Below are positions 1 to 31,880 of a DNA stretch of 64,000 bases, in pieces. Position 1 is the first letter of the stretch; each line of letters begins with the position of its first letter. The stretch is from an uncultured Bacilli bacterium (lineage in GTDB: Bacteria; Bacillota_I; Bacilli_A; RF39; UBA660). The translations under genes and the position numbers were made by a program. The notes beneath the pieces are model-generated. The model had not been told where the DNA came from. It did not search any database and worked only from the letters and a program-made list of their open reading frames with translations. The stretch spans positions 8,330 through 72,329 of the forward strand of contig CAKOIQ010000001.1 of assembly GCA_934086935.1 (NCBI GenBank). The letters are read 5' to 3'.

Positions 1-2010
1 AGGTTGATTTGGAGTTGGTGGATTTATTGTTCCATAATCGGAATTAGACACAGCTGAATCTTGTCCTAAACTATTTTTTGTATAAGCTACATAATAATAG
101 TTACCTGGATCACCAGTTAAAGTAATATTATAGTTTAATGCTGTCATTGTCTCAGGAACTGAATTCCATACGCAGGCACTCTTATCTAATCCGGATTTTA
201 AAATACAATAATATTTGATTGGAGCCCATTGGTTTTGAGTCCAACTTAAACTAGAACTTACGACTCCACCACTTAATGTTGAACGAGGATTGGTTATACT
301 AAATTGTGGGGTATATGGTGTTGTATTCATTATCTGACCAAATGATGCTGCTGATACTGGTGAAATCTTATTTAATGTGTTTTTAACATAAGCTACATAA
401 TTATATGTTCCAGGGCTTCCAGTTAAGGTAATATATTTAACAGCTTCAGAAACATCAGTTCCAACACTTTCCCATGTGCATGAACTTGATGATTGATTTG
501 ATGGAATAACACAATATGCATTAACTTTTTGTCCGGCAGTCCATTTAATTTCAGCTCTTACAGTACCTCCACTGATTGTTTGATATGGATTAGATATATT
601 TAATGTTGGTTTTTGTGGGATTGGATTTTCAATTGTTATTGTAATTGCTGAACTTTTTCCTACGTTTCCAGCTGCATCTTTAGTATAAAAATACCATGTT
701 GAACTTCCAATTGTTGAATGGGTTTTTGTAAAAGTTTTTGAAGCTGTCGTACTAGTGATGCTAGTCCAACCTGATGATGATGCAGTTATACTTGAATTAG
801 TACTAAATTGATAAGCTACTAAACCACTTAATGTATCTTGAGCTTTTCCTGTGAATGTTATTGACGAAGTACTGGTAGTTGCTGATGCTTTTAATGTTGT
901 TGTGGGAGCTGCTTTATCTACTAAAGCTTTTAAAGTGCATGTTTTAGTATTTCCGGCATTATCAGTTGTAGTTGCGGTTGTTTCTTTAGTACTAGTAGAA
1001 ATTGTTTTGGTTATAGTATTTTCTTTACAACCACTTAAACTATCTGTACATTTTACAGTTAATGTTCGATTTTGGTTGGTCCATGTTGATGGAGCACTTA
1101 CTTGAGAACATGTTGGTGATATTTGATCTGAATATACATATAATGTACATGTTGTTTTATTACCTGATCTATCTGAGATTGTAACATCTTTGGTTCCTAT
1201 ATTTATTAATGGTGATGATGGTTGGTTTACTTTTAAACATCCTCCAGCATCTTTACATCCAACATTAAAATCTGATAAACCATCACGACGCCATGCGGCA
1301 TCTGCGGTTCTATTTCCCGTGATGACACAAATTGGTGGGACATTATCAACTACGATTACTTTTCTTGTTGCTCTTTTCCAAATGTCACCGGTTTTTAATT
1401 TATAATTATATGTTAATCGGTATGTTCCTGCTACTGCTGTATCTATTTTTTCACTTGAACAAGTAATATTTTCATAATTTCCATTGCTATCTTTTGTTTT
1501 AATATAATCGTGATTTAAATTTCCTTCACTATCAACGTAAGATAAATTAACAGTACCTAAACCATTGAAACAATAATCTTTTATCTTATCGTTTCCTAGT
1601 TCTACATAAATATCTAAGGCTTGAAGATAATCTTCTTTATTAAATTTATTTAAATCTATTTTGATAGTTCCATTGGCATCATAACTTACTTTTATTTCAG
1701 TATCTTTACTAATTCTTTCTTTAGTACTTGGATTTATCGTATTTTCACTTAAATATCCATTACTAATTAAATCAGAAGCTTTTATAATTACATATCCTTT
1801 TACTGTACTTAAATCGTTTAAGATTTCAGCATTATTACTAACATAGAGATTAGCGGATGAAATTACTTTTTCAGTATATTCCTTTTGTTCTCTAGCTTTT
1901 TGAGCTTTGAATGTTCGATTTAAAGAAATGCCAATTGTTATAGCAAAGAAGCCTAAAAGTCCAATTGCCATAACTAATTCAATTAAAGTAAATCCTTTTT
2001 TATTTTTCAT
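1..2010 (-). CDS. Giant prepilin-type (type IV pilin-like N-terminus) modular surface protein, paralog A; partial, C-terminus off-window
   Basis: Absent from the ORF track because no stop codon lies in the window. Manual minus-strand translation from the ATG at 2008-2010 reads MKNKKGFTLIELVMAIGLL... (K-G/F-T-L-I-E class III signal and N-methylation motif). It stays open for 670 codons to base 1. It is collinear with the 2110..4782 product, including the blocks GKAQDTLSGLVAYQFSTNS and DAAGNVGKSSA. Confidence 0.8.
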   Translation of the reverse strand, partial: MKNKKGFTLIELVMAIGLLGFFAITIGISLNRTFKAQKAREQKEYTEKVISSANLYVSNNAEILNDLSTVKGYVIIKASDLISNGYLSENTINPSTKERISKDTEIKVSYDANGTIKIDLNKFNKEDYLQALDIYVELGNDKIKDYCFNGLGTVNLSYVDSEGNLNHDYIKTKDSNGNYENITCSSEKIDTAVAGTYRLTYNYKLKTGDIWKRATRKVIVVDNVPPICVITGNRTADAAWRRDGLSDFNVGCKDAGGCLKVNQPSSPLINIGTKDVTISDRSGNKTTCTLYVYSDQISPTCSQVSAPSTWTNQNRTLTVKCTDSLSGCKENTITKTISTSTKETTATTTDNAGNTKTCTLKALVDKAAPTTTLKASATTSTSSITFTGKAQDTLSGLVAYQFSTNSSITASSSGWTSITSTTASKTFTKTHSTIGSSTWYFYTKDAAGNVGKSSAITITIENPIPQKPTLNISNPYQTISGGTVRAEIKWTAGQKVNAYCVIPSNQSSSSCTWESVGTDVSEAVKYITLTGSPGTYNYVAYVKNTLNKISPVSAASFGQIMNTTPYTPQFSITNPRSTLSGGVVSSSLSWTQNQWAPIKYYCILKSGLDKSACVWNSVPETMTALNYNITLTGDPGNYYYVAYTKNSLGQDSAVSNSDYGTINPPTPNQP
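768..865. repeat. ~98-nt segment nearly identical to 3539..3636, inside the two tandem prepilin-like genes
   Basis: By-eye alignment shows only about 5 mismatches over ~98 nt, whereas the surrounding gene sequence is clearly more diverged. Confidence 0.7.
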
Positions 2011-4782: not shown

Positions 4783-4824
4783 ATGATCACTTTATCCTAG
4801 CATGATTATAACAAAATTAAAACA

Positions 4825-4850
4825 TTAAAAAAAGAGATTTTTAATCTCTT
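4825..4850 (-). terminator. Rho-independent terminator of folD
   Basis: On the minus strand, an AAGAGATT-aaa-AATCTCTT stem overlaps the folD stop codon and is followed by TTTTTT. Confidence 0.6.
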
Positions 4851-5656
4851 AAAGCGTTTGTAATGATATTTTCAATTAAAAGTACATTGGTAATTGGTCC
4901 AATCCCACCAGGTACTGGTGTACACATGGATGCTTTGTCCTCTATACTTTCAAAATCAACGTCACCTACCATTTTACCATTTTCGAAATTAATTCCAACA
5001 TCAATAAGAATTGCATTTTCTTTAATATAATCTTTAGTTAAAAATTTTGCTTTACCGATTGCCACAACTATAACATCAGCTGTTTGTAATTCTTCTTTTA
5101 AATTTGTTGTTTTTGAATGGCAGATTGTTACAGTGGCATTCTTTTTAAGTAACTGAAAGATTAATGGTTTACCAACAATATTACTTCTTCCCATGATAAC
5201 AACTTTTTTACCGGTTATATCAATATTATAGTAATCTAATACTTCGATTACGGCTTTACTTGTGCATGGGATGTTAGCATCTTCTTGTCCTAACATTAAT
5301 TTACCGGCGTTAATGATGTTTAATCCTTCAATGTCTTTATGAGCAGGTAGTTCATTAATTAAGGAAGCACAAGTTTTTGGAAGAGGTTCTTGAAACATGA
5401 TACCAGTTATTTCTGGATTATTTTTAACTTCATTAAAATTATTTTTAAATTCGGTTTCGTCTTTAGCCATTAATAATTTAAAATCAATGTCATATTTGGC
5501 ACAATTTTTTTCAATTCGACCGATATAAACAGTACTAGCATCATCACCTTCAATTCCGAGAACTGCTAAACAAGGATTTTTAGTTAGTTTTGCTTGTTTT
5601 GCAGTTATTCTTTCAATTATTTTTTCAGTTACGGGTTTACCTTCTAATATAATCAT
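4841..5656 (-). CDS. folD: Bifunctional methylenetetrahydrofolate dehydrogenase/methenyl-THF cyclohydrolase
   Basis: 271 aa with full-length FolD-like organisation. It has the GRSNIVGKP dinucleotide loop and the C-terminal TPVPGGIGPIT motif. Confidence 0.9.
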   Translation of the reverse strand: MIILEGKPVTEKIIERITAKQAKLTKNPCLAVLGIEGDDASTVYIGRIEKNCAKYDIDFKLLMAKDETEFKNNFNEVKNNPEITGIMFQEPLPKTCASLINELPAHKDIEGLNIINAGKLMLGQEDANIPCTSKAVIEVLDYYNIDITGKKVVIMGRSNIVGKPLIFQLLKKNATVTICHSKTTNLKEELQTADVIVVAIGKAKFLTKDYIKENAILIDVGINFENGKMVGDVDFESIEDKASMCTPVPGGIGPITNVLLIENIITNALRD

Positions 5657-5657
5657 G

Positions 5658-6221
5658 TTACTCTCCTATATATATGTTTTCTATTTTTAATAAGTTTTGA
5701 TTAAATTTATTTTTAATTTCTTCATTTTGAATACCATTTAAATTTATGTAGTAATTTTCATAACTTGATTTAATGGCTGCTTCACTTAGATATAAGCAAA
5801 TATTATAATCACTTGATAGCATTTTATTTCCTACTTGAGATATTTCTTTTGATAAGTTCTTAGTTTCATAAGCAAGTTTTATAACGTCTAGTGCAAACTC
5901 GACTGCTTTTATGCATATTTCTTCATAACTTTGATAATCTTCTTTTATTGTTTTATATTTGTTTAGAAGTTTTTCTAGGATATCATTATCTTGATCGATT
6001 GAATTAAGTGATTTTTCTTTATTTGTTTGAGCTTTTGTAAGAATATCTTTAACTTTAGGTTCTACTTCTTGATATTTAGGTTTACCTATTGTTAGGTTGC
6101 AACTGTAAATTATTAAGCTATTAATTGTTGATAAAACTAGTCCCACTACACTGCCTCCGGCAATGTGAGTGTTGGGATTTTCTAAATCATTTAAGATGTC
6201 TTTTATTTTATTTTGATACAT
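5658..6221 (-). CDS. Cyclodeaminase/cyclohydrolase family protein (FTCD C-terminal domain type)
   Basis: 187-aa helical protein. The N-terminal HIAGGSVVGL...NLTIGKPKY resembles the P-x-GGGS...T-x-GK-x-KY signature of the FTCD_C/FchA family. It is separated from folD by 1 nt. Confidence 0.6.
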   Translation of the reverse strand: MYQNKIKDILNDLENPNTHIAGGSVVGLVLSTINSLIIYSCNLTIGKPKYQEVEPKVKDILTKAQTNKEKSLNSIDQDNDILEKLLNKYKTIKEDYQSYEEICIKAVEFALDVIKLAYETKNLSKEISQVGNKMLSSDYNICLYLSEAAIKSSYENYYINLNGIQNEEIKNKFNQNLLKIENIYIGE

Positions 6222-14793: not shown

Positions 14794-15696
14794 TTATATT
14801 GTCTTATTTGTGTCAATTTCTTCGGTATTATGGGCTTCTTTAACGGCTGGAAGCTCAATATCATCATTAATACCAGCACTGTTCATAATGTTTATTAAAC
14901 CTGTATCTGATGCTTCTAAAGGAATTTCTAAATCATTAGGTGTTTCTTCTTTTATCTCTTCTTTTGGCTCTTCAACTGGTTTTAATTTTTTTAATTTAGC
15001 TAAACGCATTTTAATTTCATCATTGGAAATGTGAACACTTTGGGTTTCAGTTGGTTTTTCTTCATTATTTTCTGTAACTGGATTATCTACAATTTCAGGT
15101 GTTTCTTCCTTAATCTCTTCTTTTGGTTCTTCTTTAACTTCAGTTGTTGTTGTAACTTCTGGTTGTTCAGTAACTGGAGTATTTAATTCTTCTTCTGTTA
15201 CGGTTTCAATAGCAAGTTCTGGACTAACAACTGGTAATTCTTCAGTAATAATTGTTTTATCTTCTTGAGATTCTAGATAAACTGAATCATTTGTTTCTTC
15301 TTTATTTAATTCATTTTCTTCAGGGACACTTAAAGGTAATTCTTCATTTTGAATTGGACTTGGTGTTAAATCTTCGTTATTATTATGATTTTCAGTATCC
15401 ATTAAAACTTTATTAAAGATTTGAGTCTCTGAGAAATATTCTGGTTCTTCTTCTTTTATTTCTTGTTTGATTTCTTCTTTTGGTTCTTCTTTTTCTTCTG
15501 TTGTAGTTGTAACTTCTGGTTTATTATTAATTTCTTCTGTTTTTTTATCTTCTTTTTTGGCTTTAATTATTGTAATTATAATTAATACAACAAAGATTAA
15601 AGCTATTACTCCTAATACTATATAAAAATATAACATTCCATGTTCTGAACTATAAATTGAGTCTAAAATATTTTTTAACTTTTCCATTTTTGTCAT
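14794..15696 (-). CDS. Membrane-anchored acidic E/K/T/P-rich repeat protein (300 aa)
   Basis: N-terminal TM helix (YFYIVLGVIALIFVVLIIITII). The remainder is low-complexity with repeated PEVTTTTE(E/V)KEEPKEEIK(Q/E)E blocks. Confidence 0.5.
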   Translation of the reverse strand: MTKMEKLKNILDSIYSSEHGMLYFYIVLGVIALIFVVLIIITIIKAKKEDKKTEEINNKPEVTTTTEEKEEPKEEIKQEIKEEEPEYFSETQIFNKVLMDTENHNNNEDLTPSPIQNEELPLSVPEENELNKEETNDSVYLESQEDKTIITEELPVVSPELAIETVTEEELNTPVTEQPEVTTTTEVKEEPKEEIKEETPEIVDNPVTENNEEKPTETQSVHISNDEIKMRLAKLKKLKPVEEPKEEIKEETPNDLEIPLEASDTGLINIMNSAGINDDIELPAVKEAHNTEEIDTNKTI

Positions 15697-18564: not shown

Positions 18565-18597
18565 ATGATATACCACCTTATATGTAGATTATAACAT

Positions 18598-18636
18598 AAA
18601 AAATCCACTTAATTATTGGTAATAAGTGGATTTTAC
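18598..18636 (-). terminator. Terminator closing the rmuC / dual-HEPN transcription unit
   Basis: An 11-bp stem AAATCCACTTA/TAAGTGGATTT with an 11-nt loop, followed by a T-run on the minus strand. It lies between the 535-aa gene and ftsE. Confidence 0.55.
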
Positions 18637-18643: not shown

Positions 18644-20251
18644 TTATATTATATTTGTGTCTTCCTTAAAATGTTTTGGTTTCTTTAATGGATCTATTTG
18701 ATATTTATGAGATAAAGCAATTAACATTTCATTGTAGGTATCTAAAGACATTTCTAAGTTATAGATAACGGGACTGGTTATTTCTTTTGATGACCATTTT
18801 TTCTTGCTTTTTGAATACCTTGGGATATTTAGGTCTTTAGCTTTATCATATAAATGAATTTGATCTTGATGACATTTTAAATAGCCATGCGCTAACATAT
18901 TACGTAATTGAATATGTAGTGAAGGAAGAATGCCATGAGACATTTGGATTAATCTTTTGTTATATCTATTTAATAAATATTTAGCTGAATCAATAGCACT
19001 TGACATATCTTGTTCTGAGGGATAAGTTTTAACATCTTCTAGAAAAGATGTTAATTGTTTAATTACTTCTTTATAAAAGTTTTTAGCATGACCAAAATCT
19101 ATTTTTAAATCTTTGCCAAATTCTCTTGTTATTAGATAACTATTTTCTTGATAATCATTCATTCGGCAAATATTATTTACAACTAAATTACCATATGCTT
19201 TAGCAATAAATCCTTTAGCTTCTTGGAGGTATAAATAATCACTTGTATCTAGAGGTTCGTCATTATATATTTTAAATAATACATGTTTTAAACAACAATA
19301 AGATAAAGTGTTTTTAATATCTTCACTTCGTGATGTAATAAAATGATTATACATATGAGTAACTTGTTCTTGATATGTACTTAATTTAGTAAATAAACGG
19401 TTATTTAAGAGGTCTTCTATATCATGATAGTCTAGTTGTCTATAAGTTAAAGTAATAGCCCCTTCTAAGTCTTTATTTAGTTCTTTAAGATATTGTTTAA
19501 TTTTAATTACATGCTCATTAGGACTATCATTTTTATTAATACGATCTTTTAAACCATGTAAAATGATATGTTTCATTAACTGGTAAACATCATTAAATTC
19601 TTCTAAAGGAGCATCTTCTTTAAGACCTAAAACTCTTTTAACTTTATCTTTACTGTTGGTATCCAAAGTAATATCAATTAAACAAATATATCCTTGAGCT
19701 AAATAATTTTTAAATTCATCAGGATTTAGAGGCTTATCAGATTTAAAGTTAAAAGTAATACTTTCACTCATACCTTTTTTAAAATCACTTCTAGTATCAG
19801 ATAAAACACAAAAAAGTAATGCTTCTAACCATTTAGGATCAATATATGCTTCATAATTAGATGTCTTGATATGAAAGTTACCATCTTCATTAATAGTAAA
19901 ACTGTGATGTGCTAAAGCATTACGAATAAATCTAACTTGAGTTTCATAAGGAATGTCATTATTTTTAGTAATGATACCAATACCATATTCCATATAAGGA
20001 CTATCTTCATAACTATAACCACTATTTACTCTTGCAAAGTTTTGCATGGTAAAGACATCTTCTAAAGTTTTTTTATTTTTAATATCAACTATTTCGATGT
20101 TGCTTTGATAGTAACATAAAAGCATAAAATCTACGATTTGTTCATAATTTTCTTTAATAAATTGAAGATGACGAGGATTACGATCTTTAGTGAATTCTAA
20201 TAAATGATTGTAGCCGATTGTGGCTTTTTCATATAATTCATTATTTGGCAT
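18644..20251 (-). CDS. Hypothetical protein with two HEPN-type R-N-x-L-A-H motifs (putative tandem-HEPN RNase), 535 aa
   Basis: VRFIRNALAHHSF at aa 107-119 (Abi_2/AbiD-F-like RN-x-x-AHH) and IQLRNMLAHGYL at aa 448-459. The protein is helical with no TM helix. A GGAGGA SD lies inside the rmuC 3' end, and the gene overlaps rmuC by 11 nt. Confidence 0.55.
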   Translation of the reverse strand: MPNNELYEKATIGYNHLLEFTKDRNPRHLQFIKENYEQIVDFMLLCYYQSNIEIVDIKNKKTLEDVFTMQNFARVNSGYSYEDSPYMEYGIGIITKNNDIPYETQVRFIRNALAHHSFTINEDGNFHIKTSNYEAYIDPKWLEALLFCVLSDTRSDFKKGMSESITFNFKSDKPLNPDEFKNYLAQGYICLIDITLDTNSKDKVKRVLGLKEDAPLEEFNDVYQLMKHIILHGLKDRINKNDSPNEHVIKIKQYLKELNKDLEGAITLTYRQLDYHDIEDLLNNRLFTKLSTYQEQVTHMYNHFITSRSEDIKNTLSYCCLKHVLFKIYNDEPLDTSDYLYLQEAKGFIAKAYGNLVVNNICRMNDYQENSYLITREFGKDLKIDFGHAKNFYKEVIKQLTSFLEDVKTYPSEQDMSSAIDSAKYLLNRYNKRLIQMSHGILPSLHIQLRNMLAHGYLKCHQDQIHLYDKAKDLNIPRYSKSKKKWSSKEITSPVIYNLEMSLDTYNEMLIALSHKYQIDPLKKPKHFKEDTNII

Positions 20252-21317
20252 TAGTATCCTCCGGAATTAAATTTACATTACTGATGGAAACAAATCTTTT
20301 AGTAATTTTTTCGGTTGTAGTATGAATATCTTCAACATCTTTAGAAACTGTATTAATACTACGGGATAATTTATCCCAACGTTCACGATAACGAGAGAAC
20401 TCTATTCCTAATTTAGTTAATTCTTCATGAATTACTTTAGCATATTTATCTCTTTCAATATTTTTTAAAATCATACTAATAATGGTTAGGGTACTCATTA
20501 AAGTTGTAGGACTACAAATCCAGACTTTTGATTTATATGAATATTCTATTAAATCAGGATGATAAGCATTTATTTCGGCAAAGATGGCTTCAGCTGGTAA
20601 GAACATAATGGCTTCACTAGCCGTTTCACCGGGAATAATATATTTATTTTTAATGGCATCAATATGTTTTTTAACGTCTTGTTTGAAGGCTTTAGTAGCA
20701 AGTTCTCTTTCAAGTTTATCTTTCTTTTGATCCGTCATAATTTGATAATGTTCTAATGGGAATTTTGAATCGATAGCAATAGTTCCAAGGGGTTCGGGAG
20801 CATAAAGAATAGCATCAGCTATATAGCCGTTTGACATGGTTACTTGAGTTTTATAAATTTTATTATTTACGCCAAAAACACTATTGAATATATAATTTAA
20901 ATTAGTTTCACCAAAAATACCTCTTGTTTTTTTATCAGTTAATACTGATTGAAGACCGATAATATCGTTAGATAAACCATCAATCTTCTTTTGTGCTTCA
21001 TCAATCTTACTAATACGTTCTAAAATAGATGAAAAAGTTTTATTGGTTTTTTCAAAGTTTGAATCTAATCTTTCATTTACTTTATCATTAATATAATTTA
21101 ATCTTTTTTCGATTACTTCATTAGTTTCTTTAAAATCTTTTTCAATATTTTTACTAAACTCATATTTAAAATCACCTAGTGATCTTACTAAATCAGTTTC
21201 AAATTTACCTAATTTTTCAGTAATATCTTCGTTATTATTTTTTTTAGATAATAAGATAATTAAAAGTATAATTACTACTACTAAAAGGCCTAAAATTATA
21301 TATTCTAATATTTCCAT
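20241..21317 (-). CDS. rmuC: DNA recombination protein RmuC
   Basis: N-terminal TM helix, a coiled coil, and the RmuC core blocks LTDKKTRGIFGE and IMFLPAEAIFAE. Confidence 0.8.
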   Translation of the reverse strand: MEILEYIILGLLVVVIILLIILLSKKNNNEDITEKLGKFETDLVRSLGDFKYEFSKNIEKDFKETNEVIEKRLNYINDKVNERLDSNFEKTNKTFSSILERISKIDEAQKKIDGLSNDIIGLQSVLTDKKTRGIFGETNLNYIFNSVFGVNNKIYKTQVTMSNGYIADAILYAPEPLGTIAIDSKFPLEHYQIMTDQKKDKLERELATKAFKQDVKKHIDAIKNKYIIPGETASEAIMFLPAEAIFAEINAYHPDLIEYSYKSKVWICSPTTLMSTLTIISMILKNIERDKYAKVIHEELTKLGIEFSRYRERWDKLSRSINTVSKDVEDIHTTTEKITKRFVSISNVNLIPEDTNAK

Positions 21318-22373: not shown

Positions 22374-24800
22374 TTATTCATTACCATCATTAAAGAAATC
22401 ATCATAGAATTCATCATCAGTAACATCGCCTACTACTAGACTATCATTATCAACGTTAATTACTGGTTCTGTTGGATTATTTTCCTTCTTTTCATCAGGT
22501 GTTTTCATGAAATCATCAAATCTTTCAACAACAGTTGCATCTAATTTGTCATAATCAGTTTGAGGTTTTGTTGGTTTTTCTTCCTCTAATTTAGGTTCTA
22601 CTTCTTTGGCAGGTTCTTTAATAATTGGATTAGATTCAATTGTTGGAATATTAATTGTTTTGCCTTCTTTTTGCATTGCGGATTCTTTTTCAGCAATTTT
22701 AGCATCAATTCTTTTGATTAAACTATCAATGTCAAATTCTGAATTAAGATTAGTATTTGAACTTGGTTTAATAACATTAACTTGAGTATTAGTGTTATTG
22801 TCATTATATTTTTCATTTAGATTTTGTTTAAATAGTTTATCTAAATTATCAGTTTGAGGTTTTTCTTCTTTTTCTGGTTCTTCTTTATTAGGCTCTGACA
22901 TATTAAATGGATTTAAAGCATTAAAATCATATGTTGTTGGAGCTGTAAATGAAGATGGTGATGGTTTCTCTTCCTCTTTTTTAGGTATTTCTCCAAATAA
23001 TGAAGTTGTACCACCATCTGGAGCTGATGCTTCTGGTTTAGAAGTGCTTCCGTTTGGATTATTATCTAAAGCCTCAAATAATTTATTTCTTTTTTTTACT
23101 TTAACAAATTCTTTGATATCAAATTGTTCGATTTCTCTTTTTTCACGAGTTACTAATTGTCCTTCACCATAACCTTGAGTTCCCCAATTAATTTCGAAAC
23201 TTGGAGTTAATTTAGTTCTAAATGGATTTTCTCTACTCCTTAAGATAACTACTTCAAATAGTTTAAGTTTTTGTAAATCGGAAACAGTAATTAATGGTGT
23301 GGAAGCAGTTTTTTCTTTTTCTTTTGATTTAACTTCTCCACATAATTTACTGATTTCTTCTAAGGCTGACAATTCGGTTGTCATTAAGTAAATAAGGTTA
23401 CCACAGTTACTTCTGATTGTTTCTGCAGTTTCTTTACCGTAAACATCATTTAACTGAGCAAAGTTTTGAATAATAAAGGTAAATCTTATGGCTCTTGAAC
23501 GAGCAGCGGTTACCATTGTAGTTACATCTTTTAATGGTGGCATATTAGCAAACTCATCTAAGATAAAATTAGTTCTAAATGGTAATTTACCTTTAGGACA
23601 ATGCTGAGCAACATCAATTAAGGTTTCATATGCTTGTTTTAAGAAGATTGTTGCTAAAGCATGATAAGTTGTTTTTTCATCATGAATAATCATGAAAATT
23701 GCAGTTTTTTGAGTACCTATTTCTCTCATGTTGAAGTCACTATAAGAAAGCATTTCTGATAGTTCTCCACCACGGGCAAATAGTCTGATTTTTTGTCTAA
23801 ACACTGAAAGAATTGATCCTTTAGTATCAGTTGGAGCATTAATTGTGTTAGATGCAAAGATGTAAGCAGGATGTTTTTCACCTTTTAAAGTAAAATATTC
23901 TTTAGTATAGTTTGATGTGGCAAAGCTATCTTCACCAACACTAGACATATAGTTAATTGAATTTAAATTAATTTGTTCTTCTTTAGCATCTTCAAATAGA
24001 CCTAGTGCTAAAGCACAGAAAAAGTCTGATGCTGATTTTTCCCAGAATGGATCATTTTTATTTTCTGGGTCATATATAATATTTAAAGCAACATCTTCTA
24101 AAAGTTCAGTAGCTTTATCAGTATTTCCAGCTTTATATAATTGATATGGTAATGTTAAAGGATTCCATGCATTTCCCATTTGAGGATCACGGAAATTTAA
24201 TACTACTATTTTATAACCTTTTGCACGTAACATTTCTGAATGATCACGATATAACTCACCTTTGGGGTCAGTTAAAATCATACTTTCACCTTTACGAGCT
24301 AAAGTTTGAACTTGAGGGTCAACTAAACATTTAGTTTTACCGGAACCAGTAGCACCAATAACTAAAGTATGATAGTCTCCATTATCAACCCATATTTCTT
24401 TACCATTATTAATTAAAGGGATTCCAGCTGCTTTCATTTCTTGATCTTTAATTAATACTTTTTCAACACCATCAGATTTTTTTATTTCTTCTGGTTTAGC
24501 CCATCTACTATATCCCTTTTCATCTTTTTCACCAAATTTTAAGCCAAATCCAAAGCCTTTTTCATGTTCAAAAATTGAAGATGAAATACTCATAAATATA
24601 GCTATTAAAACGGAGAAAAATAATACTAATGTAGGTACTATGTTTTTAGGACTAAATCCAGCAAAGAAATTTAATCCATAAAATCTACCATCAGATAAAA
24701 GTGATGTAAGATTTACTATTGCTAATGAGGAAAATATCAATAAAACAATGCAAAAGATTACAAAGATTGTAAAGTCTTTAGCAGTTACTTTAAATTTCAT
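22374..24800 (-). CDS. Type IV coupling protein (VirD4/TraG family), 808 aa
   Basis: Two N-terminal TM helices, Walker A HTLVIGATGSGKTK, ILTDPKGELY and Walker B FILDEFANMPPL. The C-terminal ~250 aa form an E/K/P/N-rich low-complexity tail. Confidence 0.85.
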   Translation of the reverse strand: MKFKVTAKDFTIFVIFCIVLLIFSSLAIVNLTSLLSDGRFYGLNFFAGFSPKNIVPTLVLFFSVLIAIFMSISSSIFEHEKGFGFGLKFGEKDEKGYSRWAKPEEIKKSDGVEKVLIKDQEMKAAGIPLINNGKEIWVDNGDYHTLVIGATGSGKTKCLVDPQVQTLARKGESMILTDPKGELYRDHSEMLRAKGYKIVVLNFRDPQMGNAWNPLTLPYQLYKAGNTDKATELLEDVALNIIYDPENKNDPFWEKSASDFFCALALGLFEDAKEEQINLNSINYMSSVGEDSFATSNYTKEYFTLKGEKHPAYIFASNTINAPTDTKGSILSVFRQKIRLFARGGELSEMLSYSDFNMREIGTQKTAIFMIIHDEKTTYHALATIFLKQAYETLIDVAQHCPKGKLPFRTNFILDEFANMPPLKDVTTMVTAARSRAIRFTFIIQNFAQLNDVYGKETAETIRSNCGNLIYLMTTELSALEEISKLCGEVKSKEKEKTASTPLITVSDLQKLKLFEVVILRSRENPFRTKLTPSFEINWGTQGYGEGQLVTREKREIEQFDIKEFVKVKKRNKLFEALDNNPNGSTSKPEASAPDGGTTSLFGEIPKKEEEKPSPSSFTAPTTYDFNALNPFNMSEPNKEEPEKEEKPQTDNLDKLFKQNLNEKYNDNNTNTQVNVIKPSSNTNLNSEFDIDSLIKRIDAKIAEKESAMQKEGKTINIPTIESNPIIKEPAKEVEPKLEEEKPTKPQTDYDKLDATVVERFDDFMKTPDEKKENNPTEPVINVDNDSLVVGDVTDDEFYDDFFNDGNE

Positions 24801-24887
24801 AAAATCACTCCTCTGTTTATTGATTATATACTATAATAAACAATTTTTCTATAACTATTTATTATATTTTTAATACTTTAATTATTT

Positions 24888-26939
24888 TTATGCTCCACAG
24901 TGAGCATCTAAATAAGGTTGAATATTTCTTATTTGATAGCGTTCACCATTAACTCCAGCATTAATACTGCTTTGAGTTTTTGTAGAAAATATTAAACCGT
25001 TATCTCCACCCGCTGATTCTAGTGTTACTAAATAACTTCCTTTATTTTCAATGACCATGATTATGTGGGTTGTATTTACTAAAATATCACCTGTACCCGC
25101 TTCACTAAAGGGTATTTCATAACCCAAATTCATAAAATTGTTAGTTATTCCTGTATAATTATTTTTCATTGCCAAACTGTATGCCCAAGATGTAAAACCT
25201 GAACAGTCAAAACCATATGGAAGATTTTTTCCTGCTTCACTTAAGTATCTTGATGTCCCCCAGCTTCTATTTACGGGATTATGTTCCTCAATATGCTCTC
25301 CACCCCAGAAATATGGAAGACGATATCCAATTTGGTATAGATTATAAGCAAGAGTTACTCCAGCAGCAGCTGCTGCTTGTTTAGTACAAACACCGGTATC
25401 TTCTACGGCTGCTAATATAGATTCTTCTAATTCCTTAACTCCACTTTCACCTAAAAGAGTTGTAATTGGAACATCCACTTTTTTAGTATTACCAATGCCA
25501 TGTGGATATGAATCTAACAATGCATAATTATTTAATTTTTTAATATTATTTTGAATATATTTTATAACAATTTCATGTACTTTTTTATTAGTTGAATCTT
25601 CATAATGAACACCATCAGTAGAATTTATCAAGCCTTTTATTTTAGAATATGAATCAATATATTGATCACCAACAGCTGTAGATAAGATATCATTAAACTT
25701 TTTAATATCTTCGTTAGTAACCGTGTATCCATTTGCTTTTGCTTTGGTGTTATTTACTGGATTTACTGATAAAAACAAATAATTTACTTTACTTTTTTCA
25801 TCAGCTAAATATGAATTATAAAAATTAATATATGAATCAATATTATTTAAATCATTAATACCTGAAGCAAAAACAACAAATTTGATTTTATTATCAGTTA
25901 TAGTACTTGCTATTTCACTTTGTTTTTCTACTAAATAATTATACCCAGATGATTCTGCAGCAATAAATTTAATATTTGAATTATTAAGAGTTGTTTGCAT
26001 GCCAACCATTCTTGAATCACCAATATATAATAATGACTTTTCAATATCTTCTTGAGTGTATTGGGAACTTGCAGCAACATATTTATTATTGTTATCGTTA
26101 CTACTAGTTAAACCAAATAATCCTTCATATAATGAAGCTAGAAAAAGGACTGGGCCAAGCACTGCTAGTATTCCTAAAATAACTGAAAGTATAATGCCAA
26201 GAACTTTAGCATAAAGTTTTATTTTTTTTAGTTTCTTAGCAAAATTAGCTTTCATATTTTTAACTCTTTTTGCTATTTCATCGAGTTTTTTATTTTTTTC
26301 TTCTTCGGCTCTTTTTTTAATATTTTGGGGAATATTTTTTATTCCCTTTTTAATATTTCCTGGAGCGTTTTTAATGTTATTTTTAAGATTTTGAGGTGCG
26401 TTTTTAATTTTATTTTTTACTTCATTAGCTTTATCTTTGGCTTCTCCAACTTTATTTTTGATGTTTTCTGGTGCATTTTTTATATTTTCGGCTGTTTGAC
26501 GAGCTTTTTCTTTTGTGTCTTCAAACTTTTGCTTAGCGTTATCATATTTATTTTTTATTTCGTCGATTGGATTTTTAAAGCCAAAATCATCTTGAGAATC
26601 TTCATCACCTAATTCTTCATCGGATTCTTCATTATTTTCTCCATCTTGATCTTTCTTGTTTTTCTTTTGTGCTTCGTCTTTATTATTTTTACCAGAAGAA
26701 TTAGCTTCTGAATCAGATTCATCTTCATAGTTTTCGTTATCGTCGTCATATTCTTCATCATCATAATCATAGTCTAAATCAGAATATTCATTTTCATCGT
26801 CGTCATCATAAAATTCATCATCGTCATCGATTAAGGGCTTATAGTCATAATAATTATCATCATATGGATTATTATATCCATTCATTTTATTGTGATTATT
26901 ACTTTCATTAAATAATTTATAACTATTTTTATTTGCCAT
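24888..26939 (-). CDS. Membrane-anchored bifunctional cell-wall hydrolase: SGNH/GDSL-type esterase plus NlpC/P60 endopeptidase
   Basis: The ~240-aa cytoplasmic N-terminal region is acidic (D/E/Y-rich) and then basic, with four IKNAP-x-NIK-like repeats. A TM helix follows. SGNH blocks are present (YIGDSRMVG, ASGINDL, DGVHY). The C-terminal NlpC/P60 domain has GFDCSGFTSWAY and a downstream His (TTHIIMV). Confidence 0.75.
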   Translation of the reverse strand: MANKNSYKLFNESNNHNKMNGYNNPYDDNYYDYKPLIDDDDEFYDDDDENEYSDLDYDYDDEEYDDDNENYEDESDSEANSSGKNNKDEAQKKNKKDQDGENNEESDEELGDEDSQDDFGFKNPIDEIKNKYDNAKQKFEDTKEKARQTAENIKNAPENIKNKVGEAKDKANEVKNKIKNAPQNLKNNIKNAPGNIKKGIKNIPQNIKKRAEEEKNKKLDEIAKRVKNMKANFAKKLKKIKLYAKVLGIILSVILGILAVLGPVLFLASLYEGLFGLTSSNDNNNKYVAASSQYTQEDIEKSLLYIGDSRMVGMQTTLNNSNIKFIAAESSGYNYLVEKQSEIASTITDNKIKFVVFASGINDLNNIDSYINFYNSYLADEKSKVNYLFLSVNPVNNTKAKANGYTVTNEDIKKFNDILSTAVGDQYIDSYSKIKGLINSTDGVHYEDSTNKKVHEIVIKYIQNNIKKLNNYALLDSYPHGIGNTKKVDVPITTLLGESGVKELEESILAAVEDTGVCTKQAAAAAGVTLAYNLYQIGYRLPYFWGGEHIEEHNPVNRSWGTSRYLSEAGKNLPYGFDCSGFTSWAYSLAMKNNYTGITNNFMNLGYEIPFSEAGTGDILVNTTHIIMVIENKGSYLVTLESAGGDNGLIFSTKTQSSINAGVNGERYQIRNIQPYLDAHCGA

Positions 26940-26951
26940 TTAAGATCACCT

Positions 26952-27434
26952 CTAATCTATTTCTACTGTATAGTTTCTAATACTCGATTCTTTAAATATA
27001 AATTCATTCTTATCTTCATCTTTTATATAATAATATTTTTGACCATTTACATTTCTTGTGTCATAACCAGTTACTTTTGCTTGAATAAATTTTTTAGTTT
27101 TTATTGATTTTATAAATCTGGAAAACGCATTAAAATCTCCACTAAATTGTTTTTGTTTAAAATTTTCATCTAATAGTTCAAATGCCTGTTGTTCGTCAAA
27201 TATCAATAAATTTACATATTCAGCTAAATATTTTTTAGCCATTTGTTCCTGATCAGTATAGATGGGAACAACTTCGTTAATTTCATATTTTTGTTTTGGT
27301 TCTTCATATTGACGATTATTATTATTAGGATTATTGTCATCGCCTGTAAAAATAATTATTCCAAGTGTTATTAGTAATACAACTATAATAGCAATTACAA
27401 TAATTTGTTTTTTATGTTCTTTAATATATTCCAT
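26952..27434 (-). CDS. N-terminally anchored T4SS-cluster protein (160 aa), VirB8-like candidate
   Basis: A single N-terminal TM helix and a ~110-aa alpha+beta ectodomain. The VirB8/NTF2-like role is inferred from size, topology and position only. Confidence 0.3.
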   Translation of the reverse strand: MEYIKEHKKQIIVIAIIVVLLITLGIIIFTGDDNNPNNNNRQYEEPKQKYEINEVVPIYTDQEQMAKKYLAEYVNLLIFDEQQAFELLDENFKQKQFSGDFNAFSRFIKSIKTKKFIQAKVTGYDTRNVNGQKYYYIKDEDKNEFIFKESSIRNYTVEID

Positions 27435-27988
27435 TATTGCACTACCTTTCTATATTCTTCAATAGTATAAGGTCTTAATGTGAATGTATAAGAATCATTT
27501 TCAACTATTACTTGGTAGTACTGATCTTTTCCTTTATCATAACCACCAAGTACATCTTCTTTTAAAAGTCCATAAACATAATATTCTTTAATATTACTGC
27601 CTCTGACTTTAATAAATTCATTATATGCTTCAAAAACATAATTTCCATCTAAATGCTCTATCTTTTCTAAAACATTATCTTTATTAATACTATTTAAATT
27701 TTTATATTCAGTAGTTAATAAATTAAATAAATCTTCATTTTTAGAATTCGTTATTGCATTTATATATTTATTTATACAATTTTCTATTGTAAAAAAAGTT
27801 GAATAATCAGTTACTGTCTGTAATTTTGTTTTTGTTTCACTATTGTTATTACTGTTAGTGTTTGAATTAGTTTTAGAATTTGAAAAGATACTAACAATAA
27901 CTAAAATTATAATAATTACTGCTAAAATAATTAATAATTGTTTAAGACTAATTTCTTTAGTCTCATACTTATCTTTTTTTATAGCCAT
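27434..27988 (-). CDS. N-terminally anchored T4SS-cluster protein (184 aa), VirB8-like candidate
   Basis: A single N-terminal TM helix, an N/S/T-rich linker and an alpha+beta ectodomain. It overlaps the downstream ORF by 1 nt. The family is not recognised from sequence. Confidence 0.3.
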   Translation of the reverse strand: MAIKKDKYETKEISLKQLLIILAVIIIILVIVSIFSNSKTNSNTNSNNNSETKTKLQTVTDYSTFFTIENCINKYINAITNSKNEDLFNLLTTEYKNLNSINKDNVLEKIEHLDGNYVFEAYNEFIKVRGSNIKEYYVYGLLKEDVLGGYDKGKDQYYQVIVENDSYTFTLRPYTIEEYRKVVQ

Positions 27989-28002
27989 AAATTATTCCTT
28001 TC

Positions 28003-30066
28003 TTATACTCCATAGTCACCATGTACAAATAAATTACATTCTTTTTTTCTTCTGTTTCTTAATCCAGTTTCAAAAATACTACCCCGCATAATAATATGTT
28101 CATGCCAAAACCCAGTGCATATTCTATCCGAACTTGAATAAGTATTATATGCAGAAGCGAAACCATTTAAATTTCCAGTATTGTATTCTAAACTCGTTAA
28201 AGCATCGACTTGATGGTTAACTAAGTTAGAAATACCACTTTGAGCAAGACTATTTTTTACATTATTTTGATGTTTTTTAAGAACTAAATTGTATACCTGA
28301 TCAATAACAGTTTTAGGGTAACTTTTACCACAATATTGACTAAATGGTGATGAAACTGTTATTCCAACTTGAGCAAATTGAGGAACGTTATTTCCTAAAG
28401 TTATTCCGTGTCCAACGGTAGGTATATCACCATCTATACAATAAACAACATAATTATCACCATCAGTTGGTCCTGTACCTTCAAGGCTTGCAAGAAATGC
28501 TGCTAATTTTGTACTGGTTGTTGGTCTTGGATTATTTACATCCAAGTAATCTAATGGATCTACAGCACTTGCTGTACTGTTACCTGTTCTTAATTCAAAG
28601 TGAAGTGCTACTACATCAGTATCGCCGGTTTTACCTGCTTTAGCAATTACTTGACCTTGATTGACTACATCTCCTTCTTCAACAGTTATTGAATCAGGAG
28701 CTAAAAACCCATAAATTGATTTATTACCATCTGAATGAGAAATTGTAATCATGTTACCATAACCACTATTACAAATTTTAGATTTTTCTTCATTTTCAGT
28801 ACATCCTTTTTTAACGTAAGTAACTGTACCGCCTTCAATGGCAATTACATATGTATCACCTGAATTACCTAAAGAACCAATATCAATACCGAAATTTTTT
28901 CTTTTTTTATTTCCATCTTGAGTTTTAATTTCACCGAATTTAGAAATTATATTTGTTGATACTGGATCTTTTTTAGCATATAAGATGCCATCAATTTCCT
29001 CAGTTTCTCTACTACCAATTGGAAAGTAATAGTTATATTCGGTAATTTCTCCATAATTAGCATTATACATGTCACTAGAACTTTCATACATTCTAACTAA
29101 TTCTTGAATTTCCTTGACAATTTGAGTATTTACAGCTATTTTTTCTTCATCACTTAAATCATAATTACCAGTTTTACTATTTTTAAAACGGTATTTTAAA
29201 TGAGGAATACCTTCTAAATAAGTACTTTTAGTTAAAAACTCCCAGTAACGATCTTCTGCTTTTTCTAAAGTATCTGAAACTTCATAACTAAAACTACTAT
29301 ATCCTTGAGCTGATGCTTCTGCTTGACAATTTGCTGCTTTATTACTGGTCATACCAAAGAAGCTTTGAATGCTTTCTAATGCTTTTTCCCAGAATCCTAG
29401 GTGTCTTTCACCAGTATTTATTAAGGTTTTACAGTTACCAGAATATTCATCTGCTTCACTACCATTTTCACATACTTGTTCTAGGGTTCCATCTTCAGCT
29501 GTTCTTTCAACTTTGGGTGATACACCATAACAAGCGGCACTATAGCCAACCATATTTTTAACTAATAATTTTAGGGTATCACTTCTTTTGGCTAAAGCAC
29601 TAGCATCATTAGTACTAACATCATATGCATCTATATCTTGATTATCATCATCATATGATGCAGCATTACTATTAGTAATCTTTCCATAATCATCTTTATT
29701 TTCACCATCATTATCAACTACATAACCGAATGGAATTTCAAAGAAAACAGTGGCTAAAATAACATTATCATTTAGTCCTACTACTCCTTTTTTTTCAAAT
29801 TTAGCTAATAATTTATAAAGTTTTGTATAAAACTTTTTTTGTTGTCTTAGAATTTTGTCTTCGCACTTTTTTTGTTTATCGCTTGATTCACAATCAGTAA
29901 GCCAATACTTTTTGTTTTTTTCAGCAAATTCATCCCAGTTAAAATCTGAATATTTAAAATAAGCAGCATTTACTGAAGAATTAGCAAAAAAGGATATCAA
30001 AAAAATTGATATAATTAATATCATTTTTTTGAATATCCTGTTTATATTACTACTTTGGTTTTTCAT
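28003..30066 (-). CDS. Secreted cell-wall hydrolase: degenerate M23/LytM domain plus C-terminal GH24 (phage-type) lysozyme domain, 687 aa
   Basis: Signal peptide. The M23-like core GIDIG...GYGNMITISH...VVALHFELR has N in place of the H-x3-D histidine and ALH in place of H-x-H. The C-terminus LEGTG...DGD...PTVGHGIT...QVDALTSLEYNTG resembles T4-lysozyme-family (E...D...T) domains. Confidence 0.7.
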   Translation of the reverse strand: MKNQSSNINRIFKKMILIISIFLISFFANSSVNAAYFKYSDFNWDEFAEKNKKYWLTDCESSDKQKKCEDKILRQQKKFYTKLYKLLAKFEKKGVVGLNDNVILATVFFEIPFGYVVDNDGENKDDYGKITNSNAASYDDDNQDIDAYDVSTNDASALAKRSDTLKLLVKNMVGYSAACYGVSPKVERTAEDGTLEQVCENGSEADEYSGNCKTLINTGERHLGFWEKALESIQSFFGMTSNKAANCQAEASAQGYSSFSYEVSDTLEKAEDRYWEFLTKSTYLEGIPHLKYRFKNSKTGNYDLSDEEKIAVNTQIVKEIQELVRMYESSSDMYNANYGEITEYNYYFPIGSRETEEIDGILYAKKDPVSTNIISKFGEIKTQDGNKKRKNFGIDIGSLGNSGDTYVIAIEGGTVTYVKKGCTENEEKSKICNSGYGNMITISHSDGNKSIYGFLAPDSITVEEGDVVNQGQVIAKAGKTGDTDVVALHFELRTGNSTASAVDPLDYLDVNNPRPTTSTKLAAFLASLEGTGPTDGDNYVVYCIDGDIPTVGHGITLGNNVPQFAQVGITVSSPFSQYCGKSYPKTVIDQVYNLVLKKHQNNVKNSLAQSGISNLVNHQVDALTSLEYNTGNLNGFASAYNTYSSSDRICTGFWHEHIIMRGSIFETGLRNRRKKECNLFVHGDYGV

Positions 30067-30089
30067 AGAATGGTTACACCACCTTTTTA

Positions 30090-31880
30090 CTATAAACCGC
30101 CACCTGAACCGAATGAATCTAATTCATCTTGAGTTAGTACGACATTTATTCTCATGCGTCGGTTTCCACATACAAATAAAGCTTCTCCTTGACTGTATGT
30201 TTTAATACTTTCTTTTTCATTGTCATTTAAGTCAATTAATTTACCTAAATCTTCAACTGCTTGTTTTCTTAATCCCATTACTAGATAATAAGATGCATTA
30301 TCAAAGATTGCTTTACCATGAACAAATACATTTGGAGCGGCAAAATCGGTAGGTTGTTGAGTAATAATAATTGTTCCTGTATTATACTTACGACTACGTC
30401 TTTGAACTTGAGCTAAGAACTCTGCTCCTAATTCATTTCTTGATGATAATAAAACATGGGCTTCATCTACGTACATTACTGTATTAATACTTTTATCTAA
30501 ACATAATCCCCAAGCATATTTTAATATATTGAAGAATAATGCATTACGAATATTTTCGTCACTATTCATAAGTTCTCTAATATTAAATACAATAAAATTA
30601 CTATTAAATTTTAATGTTGTATGACCATTAAAATAGAAACGTAATTCGTTTGTAAATGGTCTTATACGTAGTTCTAATCTTTCCATTACATCTTTTTCTC
30701 TTGTTGCTTCTGGCATAGATAATAATCTACCTTTAATTGTTGAGTAAACATCATCAAATGTTGGATAATCTTCTGATGTAAATGTACTAAAATCGGTATT
30801 GAAATCGATATTAAATCTCTTATATGTTTCTTGGCATATTTCACTAAACATTTGTAAAACATCGTCTTCAATAGTTGGATAATAATATTTCATAAATGCT
30901 TTAAGTGATTGAAGAGTTCGAGTTAAAACTGAATGTCCTAATCCTTCTTTTAATTCTTCTTCATCAGCATCAAAAATTACTTCTAATGGGTTAATTAAAC
31001 CATACTGGCCACCTTTACCTAAATCAATAAAGTCACCATTATAGTTTCTGGTCATATCTTCAAGTTCACCTTCAGGGTCAATTGCAATTATTCTACAGTT
31101 ATTACGAATATGAGTTCTTAATAACAATTTAGCTGCGGTACTCTTACCTGAACCAGATGTACCTAAGATAATTATGTTGGCATTATTTCGATTAAATTCT
31201 TTTTTAATTTGATATAAGAATTGGTTAAATAAAACAACTCCACCTGAGAAATCTACACCTAGTAATGTAGCTGATCCGGGATCTTTAATACTATCAAAGA
31301 CAAATGGATACATTGCCGCAATTGTTGGACTTGGAATTGGAATACCAACACGATCTTCGATATCTTGTTTTGGGAAAATTGGTAACATTGATTTTAGAAC
31401 TTTTTCTTGTTCAAACATCATTGGAATACCACGCATTCCCATCGCATCTAAATAGTTTCTAATTTGAATTTTTTTATTTTCTAATTCTTCTTTTGAATCA
31501 GCAGTAATCATAATATGCATTTGAAAATCAAATATCTTTGATTGTGTTGCTGCAAGCATTTGGACAAATGTTTCTAAAGATTCATAGTCTTGACGATATC
31601 TTTCTTGTAATGTACGATCATTTTCTTTTTGATATCTTTGTTTTAAGTCCACTATTTCTTTATTAATCATTCTACTCATTTCTGAGAAATTAATAGGAAT
31701 ATGTTTAATTACTACTTTTATACCAGGTAAATTCGTAACTGACGCTAAGAATCCCGGTCCTATCATTTTAGGATAACTAATAATTGTTAAGATTGTGGCA
31801 TATTTGTCACTAATCATAAAATCATTAATGTTAAAATTCATACCCTTAGGGGCAATTTCACTTTTAAATACATTAGACAT
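30090..31880 (-). CDS. VirB4-like T4SS ATPase, C-terminal (ATPase) part of a split gene
   Basis: Walker A IIILGTSGSGKST and Walker B VMYVDEAHVLL. 596 aa. The start ATG overlaps the stop of the upstream fragment (ATGTCTAA, 8 nt). Confidence 0.85.
   Translation of the reverse strand: MSNVFKSEIAPKGMNFNINDFMISDKYATILTIISYPKMIGPGFLASVTNLPGIKVVIKHIPINFSEMSRMINKEIVDLKQRYQKENDRTLQERYRQDYESLETFVQMLAATQSKIFDFQMHIMITADSKEELENKKIQIRNYLDAMGMRGIPMMFEQEKVLKSMLPIFPKQDIEDRVGIPIPSPTIAAMYPFVFDSIKDPGSATLLGVDFSGGVVLFNQFLYQIKKEFNRNNANIIILGTSGSGKSTAAKLLLRTHIRNNCRIIAIDPEGELEDMTRNYNGDFIDLGKGGQYGLINPLEVIFDADEEELKEGLGHSVLTRTLQSLKAFMKYYYPTIEDDVLQMFSEICQETYKRFNIDFNTDFSTFTSEDYPTFDDVYSTIKGRLLSMPEATREKDVMERLELRIRPFTNELRFYFNGHTTLKFNSNFIVFNIRELMNSDENIRNALFFNILKYAWGLCLDKSINTVMYVDEAHVLLSSRNELGAEFLAQVQRRSRKYNTGTIIITQQPTDFAAPNVFVHGKAIFDNASYYLVMGLRKQAVEDLGKLIDLNDNEKESIKTYSQGEALFVCGNRRMRINVVLTQDELDSFGSGGGL

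Follow-up and report, generated by a model that had tools for sequence, protein, structure and literature searches.

A gene for a predicted tandem-HEPN protein carried in the rmuC transcription unit of an uncultured Bacilli bacterium

In prokaryotic immunity and in toxin systems, RNases of the HEPN superfamily play a central part as effectors. To our knowledge, almost all of them build the active site by homodimerisation; single-chain pairs of HEPN domains, the origin of which is actively debated, are best known from Cas13. The question addressed in this work is raised by a 64,000-bp stretch of contig CAKOIQ010000001.1 (assembly GCA_934086935.1, positions 8,330 to 72,329) from an uncultured Bacilli bacterium, hereafter referred to as the window, in which a gene for a 535-aa protein with two HEPN-type motifs directly follows rmuC. 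The first-pass annotation of the window proposed that this gene, here called X, codes for a single-chain tandem-HEPN RNase, either a stand-alone defence or toxin effector or a Cas13-ancestor-like scaffold, and that it is paired with the RmuC nuclease-family protein as a two-gene module. It had to be established whether X indeed has two HEPN domains, whether it depends on rmuC, and what role such a protein could play. With slightly more belief than doubt we read X as a member of a tandem-HEPN RNase family of the pEK499_p136-like type, which is accessory and probably conflict-related.

Two Rx4H motifs in one chain and the family that shares them

Gene X occupies positions 18644-20251 on the minus strand as an open reading frame (ORF) of 535 aa with an ATG start, coding for a protein of 63 kDa with a pI of 6.5. 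Its GC content is the same as that of its surroundings. In agreement with the first-pass annotation, no transmembrane segment is present in the protein, the top Kyte-Doolittle 19-residue score being 1.07. Motif 1, FIRNALAHHSF (R110-N-A-L-A-H115, codons 19907-19924, minus strand), and motif 2, QLRNMLAHGYL (R450-N-M-L-A-H455, codons 18887-18904, minus strand), lie 340 residues apart at exactly the codons indicated by the annotation. The presence of two RN..AH motifs is not a matter of chance, since none of 100,000 composition-preserving shuffles of X contained at least two of them. Among the window ORFs of at least 100 aa (21,368 residues in total) the pattern is found at the two sites of X only.

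A first word-indexed search for relatives of X returned four close clusters and one relative with 25% identity, and an HMMER scan of 1.84 billion representative proteins with the resulting profile gave 51 relatives, about 30 of which are full length (488-553 aa). These proteins are unnamed or labelled "hypothetical protein" in their sources, one of them coming from a "Clostridia bacterium" metagenome-assembled genome (MAG). The family is rare and was found in uncultured low-GC gut and rumen bacteria only. X is a member of a small, formerly undescribed family of single chains of about 490-550 aa, for which an alignment of 34 sequences with identity of roughly 20-30% was compiled; its members are designated below with P numbers and related metagenomic loci with L numbers. 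Just five columns of the alignment are invariant, namely R110, H115, W141, R450 and H455, while G13, L17, N51, G90, G92, D138 and N314 are near-invariant. The first-pass annotation had made conservation of the motifs in homologues a test of its proposal, and all four R/H residues proved to be invariant in the 34 sequences. The retention of both dyads and of almost nothing else is expected if both motifs are catalytic. There are HEPN domains without activity, for instance in AbiA and Swt1 (PMC13064643; PMC3710099), so it may be supposed that those of X are also dead and that the protein serves as a scaffold or as an RNA- or nucleotide-binding protein. With both arginines and both histidines absolutely invariant at 20-30% identity, however, the family behaves contrary to inactive HEPN domains, which makes this supposition very improbable.

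The sequence profiles point to the HEPN clan. The best Pfam match of X itself is HepT-like (aa 424-464, E 0.025), which is sub-threshold, and nothing was found for X in NCBIfam and PADLOC or, with E values of up to 10 allowed, in PDB sequence searches that started from X alone or from the profile of the 34 sequences. When the 34 members were scanned singly against Pfam, HepT-like was matched in six, pEK499_p136 in four, LA2681 in two, and Swt1 and Abi_2 in one each. This amounts to 14 HEPN-clan matches, with some members matching more than one family, and no other clan recurs. In the N-terminal domain, HEPN_LA2681 is matched at 101-155 in homologues (sub-threshold) and pEK499_p136 at 17-105 in P0019 (profile positions 7-100 of 152). 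In the C-terminal domain, HepT-like is matched in several members and pEK499_p136 in P0018, P0010 and P0046, the last of which, with 28.2 bits, is the sole member above the gathering score of PF18736 (26.6 bits); P0019, P0018 and P0010 remain below it and X itself gives no match to this model. Judging by these profile matches, the nearest described family is pEK499_p136-like HEPN (PF18736). The N-terminal and C-terminal sub-alignments were also compared to each other with hhalign, and the motif helix and the following hairpin aligned with 90% probability (E 1.4e-6), by which measure the two motif regions of X are homologous to each other. A search of a 5.8-billion-protein database with the C-domain profile yielded three fragments only and no bridge to the named HEPN families.

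The AlphaFold2 model of X, built from the 34-sequence alignment, has a pLDDT of 90.3 and a pTM of 0.88 (with a 5-sequence alignment the pLDDT was 57 and the model was not usable). Apart from its motifs the protein had been described as helical, which is not borne out by the model. Approximately 14 beta strands are predicted in it, among them those of a hairpin behind motif 1 and of a five-stranded sheet that follows motif 2. HEPN domain 1 (aa 1-155; 19787-20251, minus strand), delimited from the model, conservation and sub-threshold Pfam matches, is predicted to consist of helices 4-23 and 27-52, an insert in which a YGxG loop (G90, G92) is conserved, helix 102-114 carrying R110-H115 at its end, beta-hairpin 118-137 and helix 139-150 with the invariant W141. 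It is followed in the model by a middle alpha/beta domain (aa 160-290; 19382-19774, minus strand), which is poorly conserved and has no detectable homology to either HEPN region (hhalign probability <1% with both). Next come a helical region and the core of HEPN domain 2 (aa 291-457; 18881-19381, minus strand), assigned from the model, conservation and weak profile matches, with N314, a HAKNxYK segment and helix 445-454 ending in R450-H455. The chain continues with the five-stranded beta sheet and a terminal helix, 503-516 (together aa 458-516; 18704-18880, minus strand; model and consensus). The sheet bears a basic patch, Y-x-K-K-K-x-x-W-x-x-K, which may be an RNA-binding surface.

In the model each motif of X is located at the C-terminal end of a helix, with long helices and an insert before it and a hairpin or sheet and then another helix after it, so the supposed pair of HEPN-type motifs in one chain is found where such motifs stand in HEPN domains. 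According to the published description, the HEPN motif marks the end of helix 3, inserts are frequent between helices 2 and 3, and a post-motif hairpin is present in Csx1 (PMC3710099), with all of which the modelled placement of the motifs of X is consistent. Conservation of N51, the YGxG loop and DxKW is confined to domain 1, and that of N314, HAKN and the basic KKKxxW sheet to domain 2; the two HEPN domains are homologous yet asymmetric. The HEPN assignment is well supported by the motif, its invariance, the topology and the clan-specific weak matches, and it is not confirmed by structure comparison, the results of which are given below.

The rmuC junction and other genomic contexts of X

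The rmuC gene (20241-21317, minus strand) codes for a 358-aa protein with a transmembrane segment, a coiled coil and an RmuC nuclease domain (Pfam RmuC E 2.4e-57). Its TAA stop codon (20241-20243) and the ATG of X (20249-20251) lie in the junction DNA ...ccGGAGGAtactaATGCCAAATAAtgaa so that the two genes overlap by 11 nt, ATGCCAAATAA (20241-20251, minus strand). Start/stop overlaps of 8-17 nt are also present in loci L007, L005, L001 and L004. A Shine-Dalgarno sequence, GGAGGA (20257-20262, minus strand), is located within the 3' end of rmuC, 5 nt ahead of the ATG of X, and is kept in L001, L004 and L018. On the other side, the intrinsic terminator of the VTT-rmuC(-X) unit (18598-18636, minus strand) has a 12-bp stem and a U-tract (dG -15.1 kcal/mol, z -3.3), and its hairpin begins 9 nt 3' of the X stop codon. 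It is followed by an extended -10 box for ftsE, TGTTATAAT (18588-18596, minus strand), recognized by consensus match only and kept in L019 and L046, which is the downstream limit of the X slot. The reading frame, the 11-nt overlap, the GGAGGA and the terminator are all present as annotated, and X is co-transcribed with rmuC, its start overlapping the rmuC stop.

Such tight coupling makes it tempting to regard RmuC and X as a two-gene module that combines a DNA nuclease with an RNase. In the clade of the window the gene order is VirD4-like, VTT, RmuC, X, FtsE, FtsX, PcsB, and in a second clade (P0007, P0017) X occupies the same slot behind rmuC, again with an overlapping start, at an X identity of 24-30%. 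Besides the overlapping start, the Shine-Dalgarno sequence inside rmuC and this linkage in two X clades, the module would be favoured by a match to the PADLOC RTasRmuC model (E 8.5e-10) and by the RmuC-domain proteins of defence systems such as Shield (PMC10270631). The distribution of the two genes, however, largely refutes it. Among 80 annotated metagenomic loci with an RmuC identity of 60-97%, X is found downstream of rmuC in two, L017 and L018, which are the closest ones. In L019-L023 (RmuC 84%), L025-L026 (80%) and L046 (60%) rmuC is followed directly by ftsE-ftsX-pcsB, close relatives having the order rmuC-terminator-ftsE, and the other loci of the survey carry unrelated genes downstream of rmuC. 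X itself stands in six or more other contexts from which rmuC is missing. Moreover, the RmuC of the window is of the canonical core type, and RmuC stays 80-98% conserved while X falls to 25%, hence there is no co-evolution. A further point against the module is an X in locus L008, identical to that of L007, behind a fragmented rmuC, which may be an assembly artefact. We therefore consider a functional RmuC-X module improbable: the survey of rmuC neighbourhoods upheld the pairing within one lineage and not outside it, the linkage being kept in X clades 2 and 3 only, and the idea fails because of this, sister genomes having rmuC without X and other clades X without rmuC.

The X-positive lineages (the window and L007) and the X-negative ones are mutually equidistant, with 77-85% identity in RmuC and 83-91% in FtsE. 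At an RmuC identity of 80-85% in every case, X is present in the window and L007 and lacking in L019-L023 and L025-L026. In L019 the same terminator hairpin and -10 box as after the X gene of the window begin 3 nt past the rmuC stop. The whole module of terminator hairpin and TGnTATAAT (18588-18636 of the window, minus strand; 6063-6135 of L019) is near base-for-base the same with or without X. The identity of the terminator and promoter after either gene shows X to have been cleanly gained or lost between the stop codon and the terminator of rmuC; no flanking repeats or mobile-element scars were found around X. Consequently rmuC is a canonical core gene and the host transcription unit of X, not its obligate partner, and the overlap is transcriptional and translational hitch-hiking, not a functional module. 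The X of the window would borrow the rmuC promoter, Shine-Dalgarno context and terminator and would not depend on RmuC. The tight coupling of the two genes is thus that of a gene riding in a host operon, which corrects an appealing inference.

In the other clades X is located behind trmB, near rimM-trmD and Ku/LigD, between a pilin-like gene and the dcw cluster with gyrBA also nearby, after a tRNA and a Germane-domain gene, ahead of an ASCH-domain gene, and after rnhB. No neighbour gene common to different X clades, which could be a candidate antitoxin or sensor, was found. In L010-L014, which belong to neither the rmuC nor the trmB lineage, a TATAAT-like -10 box lies about 20-25 nt (in a range of up to 20-30 nt) upstream of the X start, together with a GGGGG or AGGGGG Shine-Dalgarno sequence, and a strong Shine-Dalgarno sequence is present in all the members examined. 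A -10 box so close to the ATG implies very short leaders and independent transcription in these loci.

There are some further observations on these loci. In L010 a tRNA gene (1333-1406, plus strand) lies between the Germane-domain gene and X, 108 nt upstream of the latter. In L015, from a human-gut MAG, a gene for TnpB/IS605 OrfB (Cas12f-like; 3696-4832, minus strand) is located about 0.5 kb upstream of trmB-X and is the only mobile-element gene near any member of the family. The L008 and L007 loci, both on JGI contigs, are 99.95-100% identical over 4.3 kb upstream, X and ftsEX, and just 81-88% identical in VTT and rmuC (L008 approximately 4400-5710), with about 20 indels, rmuC being fragmented and X intact in L008. 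The mismatches are biased to third codon positions (73/32/24), and the tract suggests either imported divergent DNA with frameshifts or an assembly chimera.

Divergence, known relatives and probable role of X

Compared to L001, the proteins encoded in the window are 98% (RmuC), 99% (FtsE), 95% (FtsX), 92% (PcsB), 90% (VTT) and 72% (X) identical at the amino acid level, and compared to L007 the respective values are 81, 89, 76, 62, 71 and 26%. Within the clade linked to trmB the identity is 65-73% for TrmB and 37-47% for X. The ratio of nonsynonymous to synonymous substitution rates (dN/dS, Nei-Gojobori) is 0.09-0.27 for X, 0.02-0.05 for rmuC and 0.00-0.02 for ftsE, which shows X to be a functional gene under purifying selection. 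The dS of X is the highest in the L001-L004 and L001-L018 pairs and is level with VTT for the highest in comparison with the window. Either the constraint on X is far below that on its neighbours, or strains exchange the gene. Fast divergence together with patchy presence gives the profile of an accessory gene of the conflict type and not of a core enzyme. Among L001, L004 and L018 the dS of X is about 0.51, against 0.11-0.23 for rmuC, ftsE and ftsX on its flanks in the same genome pairs, a 3- to 4-fold excess, and this raised dS hints at allelic exchange at the X slot, beyond faster protein evolution alone.

The same data bear on the suggestion that X is a housekeeping or accessory enzyme of RNA processing or decay, acting for example on tRNA or rRNA with such a narrow specificity that no antitoxin is needed, in which case its location in operons of nucleic-acid metabolism would mirror this function. 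All the neighbourhoods consist of co-directional housekeeping genes (rmuC-ftsEX, trmB, rimM-trmD, rnhB, gyrBA/dcw), with no antitoxin, non-coding RNA (ncRNA) or mobile element; selection on X is purifying, a -10 box and a strong Shine-Dalgarno sequence of their own accompany the members outside the rmuC lineage, and HEPN enzymes with housekeeping roles, such as Las1, are known. On the other hand, X is absent from equally related genomes with an intact rmuC-ftsE junction, it diverges 3-10 times faster than its neighbours in a family that is very rare, and beyond the four predicted catalytic residues and W141 nothing is invariant, which would be out of the ordinary for an enzyme whose cellular substrate is fixed. 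A role of this kind is considered unlikely, though it deserves to be kept in mind.

As had been noted before, X is accompanied by no CRISPR array, cas gene or antitoxin, and the search was extended here to ncRNA. No CRISPR-like repeat array is present in the window or in the 5 kb around X. No Rfam model, including the abiF motif RF03085, matched near X in the window at E up to 1, the window having only two tRNAs, about 8 kb away, and no Rfam ncRNA was found in nine other X loci at E up to 0.1. Neither an antitoxin nor a cas gene was found near X, where there is no room for a small ORF, and no minimal nucleotidyltransferase (MNT) antitoxin gene is present in any X locus examined, the neighbours in the window being RmuC and FtsE. 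Upstream space for an ncRNA is also lacking because the X start overlaps rmuC, and elsewhere the -10 box is 20-25 nt from the start.

These results bear on a descent from AbiF towards Cas13, that is, on X as an RNA-regulated or RNA-guided tandem-HEPN protein (a type III toxin-antitoxin system or a Cas13 ancestor) whose RNA partner has been missed. Two HEPN domains in a compact chain are the architecture of Cas13 and Cas13an (PMC12165695), the RN..AH motif resembles that of AbiD/F, and one member of the family has a weak Abi_2 match. However, there is no CRISPR array, no Rfam match in the window or the nine other loci and no upstream space, and Foldseek returned no match to the Cas13 structures expected in the PDB library or to AbiF (8VZ6, the code cited in PMC12737573). 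The nearest Pfam model is pEK499_p136 and not Abi_2 (PF07751), which is not matched by X itself and is matched by one of the 34 members with E 0.004 and 17.8 bits, below the 25.6 cutoff. The affinity to AbiD/AbiF assumed in the first-pass annotation is thus replaced by that to PF18736, and we regard the AbiF-to-Cas13 descent as the most improbable of the explanations considered.

The tandem-HEPN family of the pEK499_p136-like type can be compared with several known systems. The pEK499_p136-like HEPN family, the best-scoring known family for both halves of X, with a conserved Rx4H, is according to the literature tied to defence operons (PF18736; Anantharaman et al. 2013, PMC3710099). Unlike it, X has the domain duplicated in one chain with about 290 residues of novel domains between the copies, gives no match to the model itself and has no restriction-modification, Pgl, ART or Macro neighbours. 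Cas13, including the compact Cas13an and Cas13bt, resembles X in having two HEPN domains with Rx4H dyads in one polypeptide of comparable size, which form an intramolecular composite RNase site (PMC12165695), the arrangement proposed here for X. In contrast to Cas13, X has no CRISPR array or crRNA and no Foldseek similarity, and its HEPN type is seemingly pEK499_p136-like and not AbiD/F-like, so any resemblance would be convergent.

Among single-gene HEPN defence proteins without an antitoxin, DARNA/PD-T7-3 and ApeA have been described (bioRxiv 10.64898/2026.02.22.705581). DARNA, in which an N-terminal HEPN domain (aa 1-159, R117x4H122) is joined to a sensor domain, cleaves tRNA and is kept inactive by autoinhibition until a phage cue appears (bioRxiv 10.64898/2026.02.22.705581); it is a plausible functional analogue of X. 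DARNA and ApeA have one HEPN domain per chain and form the site by homo-oligomerisation, whereas X has two and gives no PADLOC match to their models. AbiD/AbiF (Abi_2, PF07751), defence proteins of Firmicutes, share an RN..AH-type motif with X. AbiF has one HEPN domain, forms a homodimer and is neutralised by an ncRNA encoded upstream (PMC13064643; PMC12737573), whereas X has two HEPN domains and no ncRNA was found for it; the sub-threshold Abi_2 match concerns 1 of 34 members. Tandem HEPN domains outside CRISPR systems are known from Swt1 and from AbiTii homologues with two C-terminal HEPN domains (PMC13064643; PMC3710099). Their partner domains differ from those of X (PIN/WW in Swt1, the AbiTii N-terminal domain), the Swt1 dyad is inactive, and beyond one weak Swt1 match there is no sequence match to X. 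By the tests run, X falls outside Abi_2, HepT/MNT, Cas13 and all PADLOC systems. A tandem of HEPN domains in one chain is already known from Cas13, Swt1 and AbiTii homologues, and the X family itself is well defined, structurally unmatched and uncharacterised and bears on the origin of fused HEPN dimers.

Several results weigh against reading X as a conflict-related tandem-HEPN RNase. None of the curated HEPN models of Pfam was passed by the X protein, and X itself has no match in PADLOC-DB v2; across the family there are weak matches to CARF_HEPN (5 of 34 members) and RTasHEPN (2 of 34), with E from 6e-4 to 7e-5. No homologue of X was found in the phage, plasmid, IMG/VR and PHROG collections, X lies outside defence islands and mobile elements, and all of its neighbourhoods are of the housekeeping kind (rmuC, trmB, trmD/rimM, rnhB, gyrAB, dcw cluster). 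The dN/dS of X is below 1, with no direct sign of positive selection. The Foldseek search of 350,542 PDB chains with the X model gave a best E of 0.25 and a TM-score of about 0.1, with no HEPN, Cas13 or AbiF structure among the matches, and that of the viral BFVD gave no match. The call of the HEPN fold is made from the motif, the topology and the weak profile matches because Foldseek found no HEPN structure, which is not proof against such a fold, since small helical bundles in a large query are hard for Foldseek. The same result does speak against a Cas13- or AbiF-like overall architecture, and the Cas13-ancestor-like scaffold of the first-pass annotation finds no counterpart, no PDB chain matching this pLDDT-90 model (E at least 0.25, TM-score about 0.1).

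If X is nevertheless an RNase of the kind proposed, the two invariant Rx4H dyads would supply the R/H pairs of a metal-independent RNA-cleaving site. A HEPN active site requires a pair of Rx4-6H dyads, which usually come from two subunits and in Cas13 from one chain (PMC12165695). In X the dyads would most likely pack within one chain as in Cas13, homodimers being less likely. The basic beta sheet and the variable middle domain could bind the substrate or the trigger and hold X inactive until it is activated. With no antitoxin, ncRNA or modifying enzyme, such a protein needs autoinhibitory gating or a narrow substrate specificity. X, probably a self-contained conflict-type effector of abortive infection or stress response, would have entered housekeeping operons at their 3' ends.

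A more far-reaching version of this proposal, which we advance tentatively as possible and no more, is that the Cas13-style design arose in X independently and outside CRISPR: a HEPN domain of the pEK499_p136 type would have been duplicated to form one gated site and combined with novel sensor domains that respond to a phage or stress cue, giving a 63 kDa antitoxin-free sensor-effector with a fold not present in the PDB. If this is true, X belongs to a second compact tandem-HEPN family unrelated to CRISPR, so that the fused-dimer solution arose more than once, and offers a small scaffold for studying the gating of an intramolecular HEPN site.

Other features of the window

Directly upstream of VTT-rmuC there is a cluster resembling a type IV secretion system (T4SS; 22374-31880, minus strand, probably extending to about 36000), which codes for a VirD4/TraG coupling protein (808 aa), an NlpC/P60 hydrolase, an M23 peptidase with lysozyme and a VirB4-like ATPase. 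As a VirD4-like gene stands beside VTT-rmuC in most of the 80 loci, the cluster seems to be a long-resident chromosomal feature and not a recent integrative and conjugative element. With T4SS-like neighbours X might be taken for a secreted polymorphic toxin, and this was rejected: it has no signal or secretion domain, its N-terminus is a HEPN domain, and the other clades have no T4SS.

Between pcsB and a gyrB/parE-like gene an ORF at 14794-15696 (minus strand) codes for a 300-aa protein with an N-terminal transmembrane segment and long acidic E/K/P/T-rich low-complexity repeats, for which there is no Pfam match; in L007 other genes are located at this place. Several features agree with a Bacillota-like organism of gut or rumen metagenomes that has a small, low-GC genome. 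A close relative of X is found on a 1.15-Mb contig. In the window as a whole (1-64000) the GC content varies from 21 to 33% and the strand bias of the genes is extreme, the minus strand carrying 50 of the 52 ORFs that reach 120 aa.

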